Below are positions 10,639 through 50,053 of a stretch of 64,000 nt of DNA, piece by piece (the stretch's first letter is position 1; each line of letters begins with the position of its first letter). The notes under the pieces are model-generated. The model searched no databases, was not told where the DNA came from, and saw only the letters and a list, made by a program, of their open reading frames with translations. A program made the translations under genes and the position numbers. Source of the DNA: Octopus vulgaris (taxonomy: Eukaryota); the NCBI GenBank assembly GCA_951406725.2, contig OX597837.1:17360001-17424000 (forward strand), in the 5' to 3' direction.

Positions 10639-11190
10639 CACTGGTTAAACAAGTATTTTTCAGCAAGCATACGTCAAGGTGTACCTAGTCTACTTTTTAA
10701 TGCTGATTTCAAATATACAATTAGTTTTTTGACATTATGTACAATTTTCAAGATGAGAAAGTTTTATTTTTTGTTTTAGCTCACGCATTATATAGAAATT
10801 CCAGTTAATAACGTATATGCATGTATTTCATTTACATCATGGAAACATACCTTTAAAATAAACTACATTATTCATTGCTGCATAGTTCAGATGCAATATT
10901 TCATCATCTTAAATCAGCTTGCTCAAATGGCTTACGTGACTGGTTCAATAATAAGTCCATGCCTTTTGCCATTCCAGTGATATGGAGGGAGCCAAAAGAC
11001 CATTTTAATTACTGTTATTTTTGCAAACTAACTGTTACAGGATTTTCTATGAAGAATAAACACAAAATTGTGTATCCAAATTTGTATTCTGCAATGAGAC
11101 CTGTGACTCAAAATGGAAGTCTGCCAATTCCAGTTCCACCCGATTGAAACATCAGATGATGATGCTGACTGCCACGATAGTGCTGCTGAG
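10639..11190 (+). mobile_element. Chapaev3-like DNA transposon 5' end with transposase N-terminal fragment
   Basis: TTA|CACTGG terminus; ORF 10875-11147 MPFAIPVIWREPKDHFNYCYFC...YPNLYSAMRPV...LPIPVPP. Family assigned from remembered motifs, not from a search. Confidence 0.7.
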
Positions 11191-14100
11191 GACGTCGCAT
11201 TCACTAGTACTGTTAGGAGACTTTAATACAATATGTGCAGCACACACAAATCGTGTTGGCTCGAGCTCGAACATGAACAGAAAATGTAACCCAGGTTTTC
11301 GTGATCTGCTAAGTCAATTTCAGCTAGCAGATCCATATAGCTTGGAGCAACCGAACACTCCACAGTGGATGTGGTCAAATAGTGATGGGTCTACCAGAAC
11401 ATATCTAGATAGGATTTTAATTAGAGAAAAAGATAAGTCCATAGTTGAGTGTCCACAGTTTTTTCTAGTCAGCTACAGTGACCACAAGATGGTTACCAGT
11501 AAACTGACGGCAGATAAGTTGCATAGACAGGGATCTGGCTACTGGAAACTCAATACGTCCCTTTTGGCGATTGAGGAGTACAGAAAGCGGATCAAGATGT
11601 TAATACAGAGGGCATTAACAGGTACCATCATTAATAACAAATGGTGGTACGCCCTAAAAAGAGCCATCAAATATGAGTCTATTAGGTTTAGCATAAGTTT
11701 AGCTAAGAAGGGACGTAAAATAGGAGATGGTCGAGTTAAGGAACTAGAAGAAGCCTGGAGGACTGGTAATGCAGACCAAGCGAGGATGAAAAGACTGGAG
11801 TTAAACCAGTATCTTGAAACCCACCACATGGGAAGTATTGCCAGAGCTAAGTTACGTGCAATGGGAAGTGAAGGAATCAAGGCCGCTGGATGGGCCCGAG
11901 TGGTGGAAGCTCGGCAAGGAAATAGTTCCTCTATTCGGTCTTTGACGAATCAAAATGGTGTCTTGGTAAACGAACCCGAGAAAATGTGTGAGGTCTTTCA
12001 GGAGTACTTCACCCAGCTGTTCGGGGGCGACGGCGGTCCTGGTGGTGGAAGAGCCCTCGAGCACTTTCTTGCCGGGCTGCCGTGCCTCTCGGGGTAGGAT
12101 GCGGAGTCTTGCGAAGGGCCAATCACGCCCGAGGAGGTGATGGAGGCTTTGGCCGATTGTAAAGCGGGTAAGTCGCCGGAACTTGATGGTCTTCCGTACG
12201 AGCTGTATAAATGTATGCCAGACTTGTTCGGGCAACTACTGACTGACGTGTACGCGAACTGGAAACAAAATGGGTTTATCCCCAGATCTGTGCGCCGGGG
12301 AGTAGTGACGTTGGTCAGAAAGGACCCGGACAAGGGGGGCGTTCTAGAGAATTTCAGGCCCATCACTCTGTTAAACGCAGAAGTGAAGATTTTGGCCAAG
12401 ATTCTAGCAAAAAGGTTGGCGCGTGTCGCGAATGGTATAGTCGGGGAGGCACAGACATGTGCCATCGCAGGCAGAACCATTCAGGATACTCTCCATCTTA
12501 TTCGCTATACCATAGAGAGGGTTGGTAATAAATCTGGCAAAGGTGGGGCATTGGTGCATTTGGACCAGTCTAAAGCTTTTGATAGGGTTGACCATCGATA
12601 CCTAGCGACTGTACTTGCGCGGTTTGGCCTGGGTCTTGGCTTCCTCAGGTGGTTTATCGCTTTATACCACAACATTGACTCGATAGTTCGGGTGAACGGT
12701 TTCCTTTCGAAGCCGTTCTGCATCAAACGCTCGGTTCATCAGGGATGTCCGCTTTCACCAATTTTGTATGTGATGGCTCTCGAGCCATTTCTGCGAAGGT
12801 TGAGTGGCATCCCGAGAGAACCAGGACTAGAGGAGTTTGTTACGGCTTTCGCGGATGATATCACTATCAGTGTAACCACAGTAGCACGCCTACGTGAAGT
12901 AGGTAAGACTATTGAGGCTTACGAGGAGGTAGCAGGAGCAAAGATTAACCGGGAAAAGTCGATCGACTTGCAGCTCGGCACCTGGGTTGGCAAGTCGATG
13001 CCTTCAGACATCGTTGTTGGGTGCTGGACGGAGGGACCGGTTACGTTGCTGGGAGTCTGGTTTGGACCAGGCCTCCAGATAGAGAAGAACTGGACGGAGG
13101 TATTAAGCAGGGTGACTGCAGTAGTCAAGACCTGGTCTTGGCGGGGGCCTATCCCTGAAAGGGAGGGCGGAGGTGGCCAATGTGTTTATCGCATCGGTCA
13201 TTACCTACCGCCTGACCATCGTGTCCTGTCCGGATTCGTGGTTGATCAGGTTGGAGAGACAGCTCTTTCGCTTTTTGTGGAAGGGCAGGTCGCCACTTGT
13301 GAAACGCTCTGTCTGCTGTCAAAAGCCTTTAAAGAGAGGTTTAGGGATGCCTTGGTTAATGATGCGCAGACATGCGTTGAGGTTGAGGCATCTCTGGATT
13401 CTCCTGGATAGTGAACGGGTGTGGTCTCCGCTGGCCAGACAAATGTTCCCTGAGTTCAAGAGTTTTTGCGAACAGGAAGCCTGGTGTTCTCGTAGACCGA
13501 GGTCAAGTGAGTGGCATAAAGAGTGCCGTAAGGCCCTCTTGCTGTTCCGGCGCTCGGGCAACGCCAGCGGTGGGGGTTCCACACGGATTTTATATAGTGG
13601 GTTGGTAGAGTCTGAATGCGACGATGGCCTGGGGTCGACTCTAGGTCTCGGATTTATACAACTGGACAGCCTGTTTCATCGTACATTCGGGTTGAGAACG
13701 ATGGACAACTTCCAAAAGTCCTTAACCTGGCAATGCTACAGAGGTGCCTAGCCCGTTTGGGATAAGCTCGCAAGACATGGTAAACGTCAGTCGCCGACCT
13801 GTCCAAGATGCGGGGGGGGGGGGGGACAGGGAAACCGTCCCTCACGCTATTGTTCAGTGTCCGGAGATAACTGAAATGTGGGCTTATGCTGAACACCTGT
13901 TGTCCGGCGAAGGAAGAGTACAGCTGTCGACACCGGGAGTTCTAACGAACGAAGGTAAGAATTGTTTTCTCACGGTTGTAGCAATAGCAAAAGCGGTAGA
14001 TCGGGGCTCGTGGGGTCGGGGCGTAACCTGATCATCGCTTCATTTGTATTGTTTTTGTATTGTGTATTCCATTCGATTTTTTATGTATTGTATTTTATTT

Positions 14101-24074: not shown

Positions 24075-24574
24075 TGTAGATATATCTTTATAGAATCCAA
24101 TCGCTTGTTGCTTGTCAAGCAAGTCTGAAATTCCTTTGTCTTTGCCTCTCCACACTGAATGATTAATGGGAAATACTTGTTTAGGATTTAACCTACATCC
24201 TGGCCATAGAGTATATAACATGGCATTTCTTTCTCCAGCCTCTTCAACTTTCTGTCGGCAACCGAAGCGCACCTTTCGGCCGAGTCAAAGGGACGATGTC
24301 ACCTTTACCCTTTCCTCCTCTCTGTCAGTAGAGTGCAATCCTTACTCTTTCTCTCCCTACCAGCTGAACGTAACTTCCACACTACTGACTAAGAACCAGC
24401 GGGCGAAATCTTGTCACTATCAACTATGTACAGTTACTGCTGTCTTACTAACAACTGCGGGCAAATAAATTTGTAAATATTATTCATTCTTCTTAGGTGT
24501 TCTCTTTCGCGTGGTATCTCCAACGTGAGAACCTTACATTTTCCATTTTCACTTCAACAGTAGTTACATCTACA
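24075..24574 (+). mobile_element. Orphan LTR candidate (500 bp)
   Basis: TGTAGAT...ATCTACA inverted ends, internal AATAAA, followed by PBS-like tgatgaccccga; no TSD. Confidence 0.5.
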
Positions 24575-24636
24575 CACTGCATGTGATGACCCCGAACACC
24601 GCACACACGCACACACACACAGATAGATCAAAACAG

Positions 24637-27600
24637 TGTAGCGTATGCGAGAGATTCGAAATAAAGGCACCTACCTTCTCTTCGCTCAGATGGAGACCCT
24701 TCAGTGGTAACGGATCCTTCAACACAGCCCCGACCCGAACGCTAGAGATAGCAGCTGCTTCACCCAACCTTAACAACGTGATGACCCTTCTTAACCCCTC
24801 GACGACCTGACTCGAAAGCCAGAATCCCCCGCTCGCTGCGCGCGCGTCACGGCTGCCCCTTCCGGTCAGCTCCCCAGCTGCTGACGTCATCCCACACGCC
24901 ACCCTGATCTTAAAGATCACAATCTCTGCTCCATTGAGACGTACAGCGCGCCTTTGGTGGCTTAACCCAGACTTCCTCCCCTATTTTCACGCAAACGGGT
25001 CCCTTCTCTTCCTCGTGGCCCCCCGGCGCTTTGCTCGGGTGCCTCCATTCATATTTAAATACAGCTTTCTGCGGCACAGATTCCTCAGCTTGTTCAGATC
25101 GGGGAGACAAGTTGTACCAAAAAACTGCTTCAAGCGGCGAAATGTGCCCTCTTTCCGCTATGGCCTTGACTGTCCGATGGTGCCTCTCTACGATCCCGTT
25201 ACTGCTCGGTTTATACGCTGCTCTGAACAAGCGACGCACCTTCCACCGATCAAGCATAACCCTCAATGCTTCCGAACGAAACGCCGCCCCGTTGTCCATC
25301 AGCAGTTCTTCCACGGGACCTCTCTCTAAAAATATCCCGTTCAAGATCTGCGCGATCTGTCAGCAATGTCCGTTCTCAATTCCCTCCAAATGGCCAGCCG
25401 GCCCGGCCCGCAATCGACCATGGAGAGATACATTCCCTGACGGTAGTGCGTCACATCCACAGCTAGCCTTTTCCAGTTGTGCTCCACCGAAAGGCTTCCC
25501 TGTTCATGCCCACACGGAGCAGGGTCGCAGCTTCCGACCACTTTCCGGATGCTTCTCCTAGTGACGTCAGCATCAAATTTCTTCGCCAGATACAGGGTCC
25601 TGTCCACACCCAGGTGATGCATAGCATACAGTCTCTTCAGTTCAGTCATCCAACCGACACACCGCAGCTATCCCTTTCCGGGCCCCCTCCGGTTCTTCCA
25701 ACCACGCTCTTTTCACCCTGGTCAGTGCGTCCGCCCTGTTTTTCTCCGAAGGCACGAAAACCACGTTCAGCTTCAGTCCGAACTCGGCGATCAATTCACC
25801 TAGAACTCCTAGACGGCGCTTCATATACATCTCCGCGACACCTTTCGTCCGCACTCTCCTTTCACCGGTGATCACCGATCCTACCCAGCCAAGCACAGTG
25901 GCCGAATCCGTCCGGGTTTCAATTGCAGCCCCCATTTCAGGGCCAAGTTCACCCCTTTCAGCACCGCGTCTAATTCGGTGACATTGATTTGGTTAAAATC
26001 ATCTGCTTTCCGAAGCCAGGCCGCGTCCTCCACCGCAGCGCCTTCGATTGCCAACACAACCCCTATCGCTATACTGCTAGCGTCACACCAGACGGTCCCG
26101 CATTCCGTCTTGGGCACGTACCAGTTCCCCCTGACTGGGTCTTCCGCTCTCGTCCTCTCTAGGATTTCCTGCATCATCGCCACCGTCCCTTCTCCCACCT
26201 TGTCGCCCCAACTCTCCCCCTCCGCTCGTCTCTTGGTGTAACTGCACGCCGTGCGCAGCCATCCAGCGATCGGGTAGTGACCGACCAACTTCCCACACAC
26301 CGAAAACAGCACTCTCCTGCTGACGCTGGAACTCAGCTCTGGAATTTCATTCCATCTCCAGAACACCAACTCACCCGATCTATCTCTTCGCAGCTTCAGC
26401 CCCAGTCCAGCTCCTCCTTCCATCGACTCCGGTGGCTTCGCAATCAGTCTGAATTTCTCCAGATGTCTAACTACCTCGTTGGCTGGCACTACAGTTTCGT
26501 CCACCAAAATGTCGTCAATGTAGGAGCTGGTGGCTTTTCTAATCTTGCCGTCTTTCCCTAGGACGGACTTAAGCACTGCTGCCATGATCTTCGGAGCGGA
26601 ATTCAGCCCGAAACCCAGCCTGGTTAAACAGTACGTCCGGCCTTTGTACCGCACCACAGTTTGTCGCTCACATGGAGCTGCAAGTATGCCGATTTCAAGT
26701 CGACAATCGTCGCTGCCTCGGTCGACTGTCTCCACGCATGTAACGTCTCGCCACAAACGTCTGTCGCCTCACCTCCCGTGTGACACGATATATGCTCGTT
26801 TAGCTCCCTGAAGTCCAGCACCGGTCTGACTTTTCCCTTCGTAGGCTGCACCACCGCCATCAGGGGTATCACTCCGCCCGCTACCTCCTCTTTCCACGGG
26901 ACAAGGACCCCTTCCTCGATCGACCTCTCCATATCGTCTTCAAACTCAACCCTGACGTGGCCTTTCAGGGCATGCTGGTAGCAGCTCACTCTGTTTTTCA
27001 TCATCGGGGGCTCGTCCTTCCATCGCCACTCTATCATCCACCGCTGACCATCGAACGCCGCCTGAAAGTCTTTGTCCTCAATGGTGTAAGCGGCGCAGCG
27101 CAGTCCCTCGCGGGGTTCTGCTCTCTCTGGCGATCCTGACTCGCAGTGCACGACGCCCCCACGCTTCCGAACATGACCTCATCTCCCACAATGCTGACGC
27201 CACCGAGGCGGTTGATGGCGTCCATCCCCATCACCACATCAACCCCATCTATCACGCGTTCAGCCACAATTACCTGCAGCCTTAGCGTCGCACCGCCCAA
27301 CACTATCTCTACCTTGCTGCTGCCTCTGCAACGGATTTCGCTGCCGTCGACCGCCCGGATGCTACTTGCCCCGTTCCATTTCTTCGTCACCCTTGAAGTC
27401 ACAAGGGTGGTCGCACAGCCCGTATCCACGAGGGCCTTCAACGTCTTCCCCTCGGCCTCCACGTCAATTAATGGCAGCGTCTCCAAAAGCGCCTCTACTC
27501 GTTTGCAGGGAAAGTTCGAGAGGCAGCAACTTCCCCGCGGGCGATGTGTCCTGTCTGCCTGCATCGATAGCAAACGGGCCCCGGTTGCGTACAGTCCCGC

Positions 27601-28547
27601 GCCATGTGCGACCCCTGACATCTAAAACACCGACCTGAGAACGGCCGCTGTCGTTGCATGGTAGGCTTCTATACGTCTTTCTACGGTCGTCGTCCGTATT
27701 TACGCACCTCCGTCACCGCTATCACTATCGCCTTTCGCCCAGAGTGTCGCCTCAACACGCGGACTTGAGTCACAAGTTCGCTCAGTGCCATCTTTTTAAT
27801 CCCGGGCAATCGTTGTAGGTGAATCCCTACATCGTCGGGGAACCCATTTACAAACGCCAGTCGCGCTGCTCTCTCCAGCCCTTCTCCTGTAAACCCAGCC
27901 AGCGTCGCTAACCTTCGAACTTCTGCCGCATGTTCGTCCACCTGTCCTCCCGTCCATCTGATCGTACCCAGCTGAGCAAAAACTGTGTATTCACACTCTG
28001 TGTAGGCATCCCTCAGACGTTGCTCTATCTTTTCCTTGCTCAGACGTTCTTCCCCATCCATCTCAAGATATAGCGTCAACGCGCTCCCTTCCAAATACAG
28101 CGCCATAAGACTTGCCACATCGCTTATACCTTGCAGTCTTGCCACCAGCCTGATTTTACGAATCCAGGCCACTACATCGCCTTCACCATTAAAGGGTCTG
28201 ATGATGTCGCTGGCGATCCTGATTTTCACTGCCATCGTGATGACGTCTTATGTGGAGCGCCGAAATAGCTTGTGGCGTATGCGAGAGATTCGAAGTAACG
28301 GCACCTGCCTTCTCTTCGCTCAGATGGAGACCCTTCAGTGGTAACGGATCCTTCAACACAGCCCCGACCCGAACGCTAGAGATGGCAGCTGCTTCACCCA
28401 ACCTTAACAACGTGATGACCCTTCTTAACCCCTCGACGACCTGACTCGAAAGCCAGAATGCCCCGCTCGCTGCGCGCGCGTCACGGCTGTCCCTTCCGGT
28501 CAGCCCCAAGTTCCGGTCAACTCCCCAGCTGCTGACGTCATCTCACA
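24637..28547 (-). mobile_element. Compact Ty3/Gypsy LTR retrotransposon, structurally complete but frameshifted
   Basis: LTRs 24637-24896 and 28271-28547 (TG..CA), TSD AACAG on both sides; gag 27681-28235, protease LVDTGC, RT LGFGLNSAP/YIDD, RNase H WCDASS, integrase LMDNGAAF/IVERHHR. Confidence 0.96.
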
Positions 28548-35852: not shown

Positions 35853-36531
35853 TTATGTTATATACTAATTGCACAATTTTATAGACTTAATACACAGCAC
35901 TCCTAAAATAAATATTCACTTTATTTTTCCATTTTCTCCATAAACAAAAGAAAAAATCCCGTACATATGATACAACCTTTAGTTAAATTGTACATATCTG
36001 CCACATAAGTAAGCGTGAATATTTCACGGAATTGCGCATGCGCTAAGTGATATAAAAAAACTTAGTTCAATTTTAAAAAAAGTATACTTTTCACTATCCA
36101 GTCACGATCACCACCTCCATCTCCACCACCACCACCATCTTTCTCCTCCTTCTCTCTCCCCTCTTTCTTTCTCCCCCCCCCTCTCTCTCTCTCTGCCTTT
36201 CTTTAACCTCCCCATCAGAACATCACCCCTCTGCAAAAATTATTACGTTCCCCCTACCTCACATCATGGAGGTTTCTCTCTCTCTTCTTCTTTCTCCCTC
36301 TTTCTGTTTCAGTCTTCGCCTTATCCTCTTTTTCCCTCTCCTTTTCTTCTTTCTTTCCCTTTAACTAATTACATGAAAGCGTTGCAATTACATTCTCTCT
36401 ACCTCATGTTATGGATGCTTCTCTTTTTGTCCCTCCCTTTTGTCTCTCTTCCTCTTTTCTTTTTCCCTTTTTTTTCTGTAATATATATAAATGTTTTACG
36501 TTCCTGTCCCAGTTTGTATTTTTTTACATAT

Positions 36532-36839
<308 letters not shown>

Positions 36840-36912
36840 GTAAAAAATACAAACTGGGACAGGAACGTAAAACATTTAGAAGACGATACAAAAACACGGA
36901 CGGGACATTCGA

Positions 36913-36978
36913 AGCCTTCAATCTTCAGTCAAGAACCGGATCATCTTCGCAATTTCGGCTGATTAATCTTGAGATTTC
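36913..36978 (-). ncRNA. Candidate non-circularly permuted hammerhead ribozyme (family 1, reverse copy)
   Basis: gaaa-UC-ucaaga-uuaaucagcc-GAAA-uugc-14 nt-ucuuga-CUGAAGA-uugaaggcu. Confidence 0.5.
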
Positions 36979-37538
36979 TCCGATCTGGCCAGCCCCAAGG
37001 GAAAATCTAAGCCAAGCGCATTAGATTCCTTGGAAGAAAGCCTCGAATGTATACAAAACAAGGATGGAAAACAGGACAATTCTCTGCCTTTCACACTTCG
37101 CACTCCTCTTTGATCGTCTCTTTCTCTCTCTGTCTCTCTCTCTCTTCTCCTCCTCCTTTGTTCCTTGTTCGCCTTCTTTCTCTCTTCATCTGTCCCTCTT
37201 TTCCTCTCTCTTCTCACACGTGACTAGCCGACCGATTGCTAACCCTTTCGTGGTCAGCAGCCGTTGCGGCAAGACACAATTTTTTTTCTCTCTCTAGCCC
37301 TAAGGCTTTTTTCTAACGCCAGCTCAAACATTTACTCGTCCTGTCGAAAAGACGCTTGTCTGTGATGTCCTGTTTTTGTTGTTATTATTAGTATCATTAT
37401 TGTTTTTACGTATTTTTGCATTTTTATTCGTGTAACATCGTCCTGTTTTTCGTCCTTGTTTTGTATACATTCGAGGCTTTCTTCCAAGGAATCTAATGCG
37501 CTTTGCTTAGATTTTCCCTTGGGGCTGGCCAGATCGGA

Positions 37539-37604
37539 GGAATCTCAAGATTAATCAGCCGAAATTGCGAAGATGATCCAGTTCTTGACTGAAGATTGAA
37601 GGCT
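37539..37604 (+). ncRNA. Candidate non-circularly permuted hammerhead ribozyme (family 1, forward copy)
   Basis: ggaa-UC-ucaaga-uuaaucagcc-GAAA-uugc-14 nt-ucuuga-CUGAAGA-uugaaggcu; perfect 6-bp stem I. Confidence 0.5.
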
Positions 37605-37676
37605 TCGAATGTCCCGTCCGTGTTTTTGTATCGTCTTCTAAATGTTTTACGTTCCTGTCCCAGTTTGTATTTTTAC

Positions 37677-37844
<168 letters not shown>

Positions 37845-38077
37845 GTATATGTAAAAAATACAAACTGGGACAGGAACGTAAAACATGTATATATATATAT
37901 AGGTTATAAAATGAGATAGGGGTTGAAAATTCAACCCACCATGGGATAATATATATCCAATATACTGCTAGATAGGTACCCAACAAGACTAATACATAGA
38001 TGTTAAAAATTGTCAAACAATCAGTTCATCTATTGTATTATATGGGTAAAGGTAATAATATTACCGTAAATTAATAC

Positions 38078-38393: not shown

Positions 38394-38444
38394 AGCTTCT
38401 ACAGGACTAGAACTGTTTCATTCAAAAGAAATCATCAGGAAGCT
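38394..38444 (-). ncRNA. Type I hammerhead ribozyme
   Basis: agcuuc-CUGAUGA-uuucuuuugaau-GAAA-cag uucuaguc cug-UA-gaagcu; stem I 6 bp, stem II weak (U-U at base). Confidence 0.7.
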
Positions 38445-40020: not shown

Positions 40021-40071
40021 AGCTTCCTGATGATTTCTTTTGAATGAAACAGTTCTAGTCCTGTAGAAACT
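40021..40071 (+). ncRNA. Type I hammerhead ribozyme, inverted partner copy
   Basis: Same motif with one stem I mismatch (gaaact). Confidence 0.62.
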
Positions 40072-40151: not shown

Positions 40152-40225
<74 letters not shown>

Positions 40226-40439
40226 TATATACATACATATATGAACATACTTACATATATATGTATATATATATATATATGCATATATGGCTACAGGACG
40301 TCACAAAACGTAAACAACATGAAATACGCAAACAACATGAATCATGAAACACGAAAATAACATGAAATACGAAAGGAAACTTGGATATGCGAACAACGAG
40401 AGAAACAAATGGAAAACAAGACGAGTAACATAAAGAAGG

Positions 40440-40503
40440 ACCCTTCATCAGTTGTTGGCTGTTCATCTACTCCACATTTCGAGCAATTAATGACAATATG
40501 AGG
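40440..40503 (-). ncRNA. Candidate non-circularly permuted hammerhead ribozyme (family 2)
   Basis: ccuca-UA-uugu-cauuaauu-gcuc-GAAA-ugugg-16 nt-acaa-CUGAUGA-a-gggu. Confidence 0.55.
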
Positions 40504-40899
40504 CTTCGAAAAACAGATGCTCCCGCGAACCAAAATAAACTTTGGGATTTGCGGAGGGTAACAAAAGCAGGACAGTAGAGACGCACAACAAACCAAACGA
40601 AAACAAACACGGAGGGTCGTTAGGCTAGACGAGTTAAGGTCGGCCGCACGCAGCAACATCGCCAATCATACGACCAGCAGTGATAACCACGGCGATAACA
40701 CGCCAGATCATTGTGCCATATCAACTGAGTCAGCAACGGTGTTACCAACAGCATCCCCAGGATCGGAGCCTATCAGAGATATACCAGGAGTGCGTATATA
40801 GCCACATCCCTAGTCTATAAATATATTGGATCAGCCAGTACATCTCCCAAACGTTGCTTCCGCAACCACCAGTCGTCCTTAAGAGTCCCAGAAAGACGG

Positions 40900-41430
40900 T
40901 TTGTCACGTCCCTGTTCCGCCATATCTGGCACCTGATATCAGGTGGAAAATAATAGATCATCCAGGCCTATATATTAATGCGAAAGGCCGTTGTAAAATC
41001 TGCATTGCGGAGAGAGCCAAAATTCATATACTAAACCTGGCACATTAAATAGTCGTAAAGAAATTTTCTCTAAATGTGTCCACTTCAAGCGCTACCTACT
41101 GTAAAATTAGATCTCCCCATTTGCTGGTTAGACATTTTCAGGTCTATTAGGGATATTTTATCATCTGGTTCAGAGAAGACAATCCGTACACATTAACGTT
41201 TTTATATGTTAAGGCTTAAATCTCGATTTCTGAGCCTTTCCTCAAGTTCGCGACCTAGAAAGTTTTAATTTTTTGTCTTTGTATAGAGTCTGACGAGCTG
41301 TCCATAAGGCTTTGGCTTTGTGGATACGAAACCTTTGGTAACTCTATGTCCAAACTTTCAATTTTTCTTGTAATAATTACTGCTCTATTAGTTAGAGTGT
41401 GCTTCTTTTCCGATATATGTTTTATTGACT
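40900..41430 (+). mobile_element. Penelope-like element 3' end (GIY-YIG C-terminal remnant plus pseudo-LTR)
   Basis: IRWKIIDHPGLYINAKGRCKICIAERAKI then, frameshifted, LNSRKEIFSKCVHF; followed by a hammerhead and (TA)n. Confidence 0.7.
41283..41347 (+). ncRNA. Type I hammerhead ribozyme with long stem II
   Basis: auagagu-CUGACGA-g c uguccauaaggc uuug gcuuuguggaua c-GAAA-cc uuu gg-UA-acucuau. Confidence 0.85.
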
Positions 41431-50020: not shown

Positions 50021-50053
50021 TTTAACGTTTCGAGCGGAGCACTTCGTCAGAAA
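50021..50053 (-). ncRNA. Minimal hammerhead in a ~150-bp PLE-like terminal fragment (49976-50124)
   Basis: uuu-CUGACGA-a-gugc ucc gcuc-GAAA-cg-UU-aaa; palindromic aacguu; one mismatch in stem II. Confidence 0.58.

Follow-up and report, generated by a model that had tools for sequence, protein, structure and literature searches.

Hammerhead ribozymes of types I, II and III are nested three-way junctions whose blocks follow one another in the circular order C-G-S (CUGANGA, GAAA and cut site). Eckert et al. (2023; PMC10085705) described permutations of this order, among them type SGC, which comprises HRIMA-1 and its variants and with which an S-G-C block order is already published. In that report, stem II of type SGC directly follows CUGANGA, an arrangement assumed to be necessary, and the type is known only from metatranscriptomes and from no genome of a known organism. 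Type CSG, in which block C is whole and 5'-most, came from metagenomic DNA, and its host element was not previously known. Insertions into the core have been described on a smaller scale: of 1–2 bases only in the available text of Perreault (2011). An extra base is tolerated at the A9/G10.1 step of the CChMVd plus strand and of minimal hammerheads in Penelope-like elements (PLEs). Hammerhead variants "containing additional helices" are cited in PMC13725137. Animal non-LTR retrozymes (PMC7229834; bioRxiv 10.64898/2026.07.22.740005) are PLE-tied, non-coding, pyrimidine-rich tandem units with one type I hammerhead each, typically 170–400 nt long and up to 972 nt in the bioRxiv report. No canonical hammerhead was reported for Naiads, PLEs with an N-terminal GIY-YIG domain, a DKA motif and (TA)n targets, by Craig et al. 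(2021, PMC8557442), who labeled eight of them "HHR_half_core", with GAAA 35–50 nt away on either side; two of these eight are cephalopod elements. The available octopus repeat annotation passages contain none of the terms "hammerhead", "ribozyme" or "Naiad".

We analyzed 64,000 nt of the Octopus vulgaris genome (contig OX597837.1, positions 17,360,001 to 17,424,000; hereafter the window). Sequence comparison makes it probable that a minus-strand stretch of the window derives from a Penelope-like repeat without coding sequence, of which it is an aged copy, and that all hammerhead core bases are present in the 3' part of this repeat, ordered as cut site, GAAA and CUGANGA; stem II is predicted to form with an upstream strand across a four-way junction at A9/G10.1, and the RNA likely served to cut element transcripts into unit lengths. 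This split form resembles type SGC in its S-G-C order, double pseudoknot, short linker between stems I and II and a helix joining the far ends of these stems. It differs in that the 10.x strand of stem II is supplied from upstream through the four-way junction, and in that thousands of copies reside in an animal genome. With type CSG it shares the circular block order and the interaction helix. Where the CChMVd plus strand and PLE minimal hammerheads accommodate one base at A9/G10.1, the split form would place two helices and the chain ends. The units found here share with retrozymes a non-coding, pyrimidine-rich tandem make-up, one hammerhead motif per unit and a tie to PLEs. They differ in measuring 713–868 nt and in being permuted, core-split and known from genomic DNA, and fold and covariation indicate that the retrozymes' type I hammerhead is absent from them. 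The core-split layout with its four-way junction, and its link to Naiads, were not found in the largely open-access literature searched.

Table. Features of the split-form motif, its host copies in the window, and type-CSG loci (single-number loci refer to the window; RNA elements as predicted).
Feature	Position	Strand	Remark
X, 5' arm of junction helix P0 (ACCCU), partner X'	40555..40559	-	each pair kept in 24–27/30 copies
Hairpin P1 between X and Y, closing CCGC/GCGG	40523..40554	-	kept in 24–27/30 copies
Y, stem II 10.x strand (GAGCA, with G10.1 at 40522); partner 40481–40485	40518..40522	-	28–30/30 copies
Stem III extension (interaction helix), 5' strand, with GAAG side of internal loop	40504..40516	-	
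Block S: stem III 16.x strand, U16.1 (40498), A17 (40497)	40497..40503	-	
Stem I, 5' arm	40491..40496	-	4 pairs in window copy; most copies have 6
Block G: 11.x strand, GAAA (40480–40477), stem III 15.x strand	40472..40486	-	
AGUA side of internal loop with stem III extension, 3' strand	40459..40471	-	
Stem I, 3' arm, with CUGAUGA (40451–40445)	40445..40457	-	
X', P0 3' arm (AGGGU)	40440..40444	-	immediately 3' of A9
Aged, 5'-truncated copy of non-coding repeat family 2 (= A1)	40221..40640	-	TA-rich tail at (TA)n tract
Family 1 (= B1) copy, architecture as in family 2	37467..37612	+	kink-turn consensus in stem III extension
Inverted family 1 copy, architecture as in family 2	36905..37050	-	
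Type-CSG hammerheads behind metagenomic Naiad ORFs	L226:3440-3560; L231:2890-3000; L256:1660-1780		

The initial annotation of this DNA described a rearranged hammerhead at 40440–40503. The minus-strand letters it cited (CCUCA-UA, UUGU, GCUC-GAAA-UGUGG and ACAA-CUGAUGA-A-GGGU) are present at 40503–40440, and its spacings hold for families 2 and 1, respectively: 16 and 16 nt from the site to GAAA, and 25 and 24 nt from GAAA to CUGA. Both motifs are also oriented in the same polarity toward an element end abutting (TA)n in the window, as it had noted. That span is part of the motif but falls short of its full extent, which reaches 40559; stem II forms best with the upstream strand. The hammerhead core bases CUGANGA, GAAA, U16.1 and H17 all occur in the window copy, and the cut is predicted, by analogy, between 40497 and 40496, in agreement with the earlier placement after the A at 40497. 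Among 30 aged family-2 copies the full core set is retained in 17, and each base in 24–30. CUGANGA and CGAAA were selected for by the search patterns. The window copy is decayed, and its predicted single-strand fold, from a model outside of which pseudoknots lie, differs from the ribozyme (z 0.24). No hammerhead appeared among the 150 of 152 Rfam matches listed for the window, which amounted to microsatellite noise, and Pfam searches of four window ORF remnants returned nothing informative. Among sequencing runs searched for the stretch, no match came from a run on record as RNA or from raw reads.

Copies of the non-coding families 1 and 2 sit at (TA)n and may be 5'-truncated, arranged in tandem or inverted, traits common to other PLE clades. 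Family 2 has 4,457 search candidates genome-wide, with top copies 81%–87% identical, and family 1 has 3,364 candidates that are 95%–97% identical. A tandem period of 868 nt at one locus (L029) sets the full family-2 unit at about 868 nt; non-coding tandem units with one ribozyme motif each measure 868, 836, 779, 744 and 713 nt. For the family 1 copy on the plus strand, the cut is predicted to fall between 37544 and 37545. Each family 1 copy also has its final 40 nt repeated in inverted orientation beyond its (TA)n tract (36490–36527 and 37850–37887). A search for the motif order against a control puts that order far above chance in this genome: the pattern CGAAAN{5,10}AGATRAN{10,13}CTGANGA has 8,392 matches versus 13 for its reverse, and a looser pattern 15,125 versus 651 for its control, although these matches are not independent because all copies stem from few founders. 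The conserved structured RNA class in Penelope-like element ends that the annotation had proposed from two families is borne out on a far wider basis.

In the proposed fold, the 5' to 3' order would be X, hairpin P1, Y (10.x), interaction helix, stem III, UH, stem I, a short linker, 11.x-GAAA, stem III, interaction helix, stem I, CUGANGA and X'. The strand before GAAA pairs with the upstream Y, and the strand following A9, after CUGANGA, pairs with the upstream X. X, P1 and Y are consecutive, often without gaps, which places a four-way junction between A9 and G10.1; Y lies 21–29 nt upstream of the predicted cut site. Given the upstream stem II and the X/P1/Y junction, the RNA can be described as an SGC/CSG circle opened between A9 and G10.1. 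The sequence of the upstream stem II varies among families while its pairing persists (GAGCAA/UUGCUC, GAAGG/CCUUC, GGCUG/CAGCC, GGGCA/UGCCC and GACACC/GGUGUC). Parsing of 23 sequences, either family majorities or single copies including that of the window and representing the best preserved of 218 matches, recovered stems I, III and upstream II in 23 of 23 and the junction in 22 of 23, a few with a doubtful partner; all parse features occurred together in 0–2 of 300 shuffles per sequence.

Alignments of real copies (MAFFT) show that the stem pairing is retained on a wider scale, with 93.9% paired and both-side changes in 16 of 27 pairs in clade A (24 copies), and 87.2% paired and both-side changes in 21 of 34 pairs in clade B (19 copies); the alignment shuffles ignore relatedness, and the structure model derives from the same families. 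Compensatory changes affect three of five pairs of the upstream stem II and four of five of stem III in each clade, along with stem I (four of five pairs in clade A, four of six in clade B) and, across clade A, three of four pairs of P1. Helix P0 is invariant in clade A, with no compensatory change; its two junction pairs are open in 12–13 of 19 clade B copies, and it spans only ~3 bp in some metagenomic matches. Core features that our searches did not target, namely U16.1, a non-G17 and the A15.1-U16.1 pair, are kept, the pair in 24/24 clade A and 19/19 clade B copies aligned there. The G10.1-C11.1 closing pair of stem II exists only with the upstream strand Y, C11.1 being partly fixed by the pattern. 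Taken as a structure, a conserved RNA with all hammerhead parts, a non-circular order and a predicted break in the core is well supported by these comparisons.

Stem III runs through an internal loop into a helix that bridges the far ends of stems I and II. This extension is 88%–90% paired with compensatory changes in clades A and B, and is present in most metagenomic matches. In clade B and the local Naiad, the loop has the kink-turn consensus of a 3-nt bulge and then tandem G.A and A.G pairs, the latter intact in 15/19 and 23/28 copies, respectively. At position 3n, 13 of 19 clade B copies have G, a base reported to permit ion-induced kink-turn folding (PMC4382518). Where it occurs, the kink-turn suggests how stem III may join the interaction helix, a question left open until now. 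The family 2 internal loop is instead a 4x4 GAAG/AGUA loop with no kink-turn consensus; its AGUA/GAA portion resembles, we presume, a loop E motif. A universal kink-turn was rejected, as family 2 and most metagenomic matches have other loops. At one metagenomic locus (L229:2900-3050), a hairpin takes the place of the kink-turn loop.

The split layout is carried by Naiad elements. At 12 of 30 loci of this genome, the motif lies 735–2,390 nt downstream of Naiad-type reverse transcriptase (RT) matches on the coding strand, and the RT piece at one locus (L157) best matches proteins with an N-terminal GIY-YIG and DKA. The published elements Naiad_Obim and Naiad_Ovul carry the same motif at their 3' ends. 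Both the N-type motif and the metagenomic loci have an upstream ORF with an N-terminal GIY-YIG, a CxC linker, DKA and a C-terminal RT. A metagenome scan yielded 58 Naiad-related loci, of which 13 lacked a usable ORF end and were dropped, leaving 45 3' flanks (50 kb). Fifteen of these contain the split form, 11 with junction gaps of ≤2 nt, although some matches are close relatives (L248/L249; L244/L257/L263); the other four of the 15 show by eye a hairpin beside Y and a P0 of 3–5 bp. Type CSG occurs in 3 of the 45 flanks and types I–III in none; 27 flanks, several of them shorter than 100 nt, have no hammerhead. The controls, consisting of antisense flanks, 91 kb of ORF and 10 shuffles, contained neither the split form nor CSG. 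One further locus (L254:880-1050) has a split layout with a long insert before GAAA and was missed by the descriptor.

From the supplement of PMC8557442, 41 Naiad 3' ends (330–420 letters each) were inspected by eye. Six nematode ends read as CSG, and two octopus ends and probably one squid end as the split form; the bivalve and hemichordate ends among the 41 show no hammerhead core. Oyster, pearl-oyster and hemichordate Naiad 3' UTRs in this supplement share a GC-rich stretch of ~70 nt without a hammerhead core, possibly another structured RNA. The end of the spider element Naiad_Ptep would represent yet another variant, in which the order is S-G-C, stems I and III are long and GAAA is preceded by a local hairpin.

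Somewhat less firmly than for the window copy, we think it likely on these comparisons that non-circularly permuted hammerheads have their natural home in the Naiads of several animal groups. Some would carry CSG; others, with their non-coding derivatives, would have a seventh permutation, whose opening lies within the catalytic core and which a four-way junction holds together. This form would act as a monomeric ribozyme and be present in well over ten thousand copies in one genome, yet be invisible to all standard hammerhead searches. If true, this would break the six-permutation scheme's stated assumption of a contiguous CUGANGA and stem II and supply the first genome-encoded home for non-circular hammerhead permutations. 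It would also account for the apparent absence of the ribozyme of other clades from Naiads, which in many invertebrates are the most abundant PLEs.

Families 1 and 2 share with Naiads the ribozyme layout only, and their units have no sequence beyond it in common with Naiad or with three intact Neptune copies. No ORF for family 1 or 2 was found when 30 Naiad RT loci and the intact Neptune copies were compared, and no A- or B-type motif lies behind a Naiad ORF at those 30 loci, 17 of which were widened to 8–9 kb. The intact Neptune-type ORFs (L404:-, L405:+, L406:+) have open frames of 1,098–1,200 aa and pLTRs at (TA)n; their pLTRs bear a minimal hammerhead-like core with U in place of C3. These elements are a candidate enzyme donor for the young families. 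As the Naiad copies examined are decayed and the Neptune-type element is intact, Naiad may have supplied the ribozyme and another clade the enzyme.

Copy ends bear on how the RNA might be processed. Among 94 family-1 copies, chosen by a pattern downstream of the site and representing 90 loci among the first 100 matches listed of 2,012, 22 start 0–12 nt after the predicted site, compared with 14 over 60 nt upstream and 12 over 23 nt downstream; two starts were shifted from -3 to 0, their extra letters being TA tract. The corresponding rates per nt are 0.024, 0.0044 and 0.0059, an approximately 5-fold excess over upstream (binomial p ~5e-7, with the 0–12 nt interval set post hoc). Starts between the site and C11.1 occur in 14 of 46 clade A copies, with 4 in the 60 nt upstream, and in 13 of 50 clade B copies, with 8 upstream, the latter overlapping the 94-copy family-1 set. 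With most 5' ends at +5 to +10, their position could also be due to TA microhomology or stalling of the enzyme.

We propose that a transcript with the split hammerhead would be cut at the predicted H17 site into unit lengths. Stem II would stack on the core and P0 on P1, and a bend between stem III and the interaction helix, provided by the kink-turn in clade B and the local Naiad, would draw stems I and II close to each other within one molecule; the model thus envisages three-dimensional equivalence to the hammerhead core and monomeric cleavage. As in animal retrozymes, tandem or read-through transcripts would be cut, and the monomers may be ligated to circles, as RtcB is reported to do with retrozyme RNA. 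A Penelope-type enzyme would then copy the unit RNAs into (TA)n, with priming at an internal position of the RNA, close to its TA-rich tail; for one PLE, internal initiation has been reported.

The helices as such could be explained in other ways, and stem II is the point at which one of these departs from our model. The initial annotation implied a stem II of GGGU and GCUC over a bulged A, which would make the RNA an ordinary type-SGC hammerhead and the upstream pairings an alternative, inhibitory fold. This direct helix is 95.4% pairable in clade A and kept in 27–30 of 30 family-2 copies, and an extra base at A9/G10.1 is reportedly common in PLE hammerheads. Yet it is possible only in the clade of family 2, where it shows no both-side change and many U-G cells; it is 6.6% paired in clade B and 0–2 bp long in the local Naiad, and direct SGC occurs in 0/45 metagenomic flanks versus 15 with the split form. 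We accordingly rejected the direct stem II as a general fold, given its values in clade B and the metagenomic flanks and its lack of covariation in clade A, and consider the inhibitory-fold reading improbable. The annotation had also stated that both linkers keep AUUAAU and AGAUGA, and suggested that the palindromic AUUAAU might mediate dimerization. AGAUGA does occur in both families, although it was selected for by the first search pattern and is absent from most metagenomic examples; AUUAAU, present in 24 of 24 family-1 copies, is not a family-2 trait, occurring in 5 of 30 copies against 15 with GUUAAU and 6 with GUGAAU. In the window copy, the first A of AUUAAU represents a G-to-A change, which also disrupts pair 6 of stem I, intact in 22/30 copies. 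Nor is the stem III mismatch shared as had been stated: U.U occurs in 22 of 30 copies of family 2, whereas in family 1 all 24 other copies keep the equivalent pair intact. PLE hammerheads with a minimal stem III are known to form dimers, whereas stem III here has 4–7 bp plus its extension, and linkers in other families are UUCA, GA, UUUA or a single A. With the palindrome and the family-1 mismatch copy-specific, and a long, extended stem III that does not point to dimerization, pairing of two molecules through AUUAAU to cleave as a dimer is unsupported, and we judge it very unlikely.

The more serious alternative accepts the upstream fold but doubts its activity: the RNA could be an inactive or protein-dependent hammerhead, or a binding site recognized by the Penelope enzyme. 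Cleavage by the split form is a prediction, metazoan PLE hammerheads are reported to cleave poorly in vitro, and a two-helix insertion beside the core could distort it. Moreover, 60 of the 94 family-1 copies reach past the predicted site, although ligated circles would likewise yield copies that pass it. Against this reading stand the retained untargeted core features, with the A15.1-U16.1 pair present in every copy aligned for it, the validated CSG form at the same place in some Naiads and the steep fall of 5' ends upstream of the predicted site; we regard it as unlikely, if less so than the inhibitory fold. A chance resemblance amplified by transposition would fit the descent of all genomic copies from few founders, which deprives the match counts of independence. 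Unrelated metagenomic Naiad sequences nevertheless keep every helix, and the controls gave zero matches, making chance a negligible contender beside a split-form ribozyme.

Other PLE-derived and retrotransposon sequences surround the motif in the window. A well-formed canonical type I hammerhead at 41283–41347 (+), with a 7-bp stem I, long stem II and CC/GG stem III, is not in the Rfam matches listed; it sits in the 3' end of a decayed PLE with a C-terminal endonuclease remnant at ~40940–41100. This element we take to be Hydra-clade-like. [quoted passage not shown] Short CUGANGA-GAAA motifs of the minimal type I kind occur at 50028–50050 (-), 40027–40049 (+) and 38416–38438 (-), the last two forming an inverted duplicate. 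The window also contains a LINE remnant with endonuclease and RT at 11060–13751 (+) and, at 24570–28247 (-), an LTR retrotransposon remnant with pieces of gag, protease, RT and integrase.
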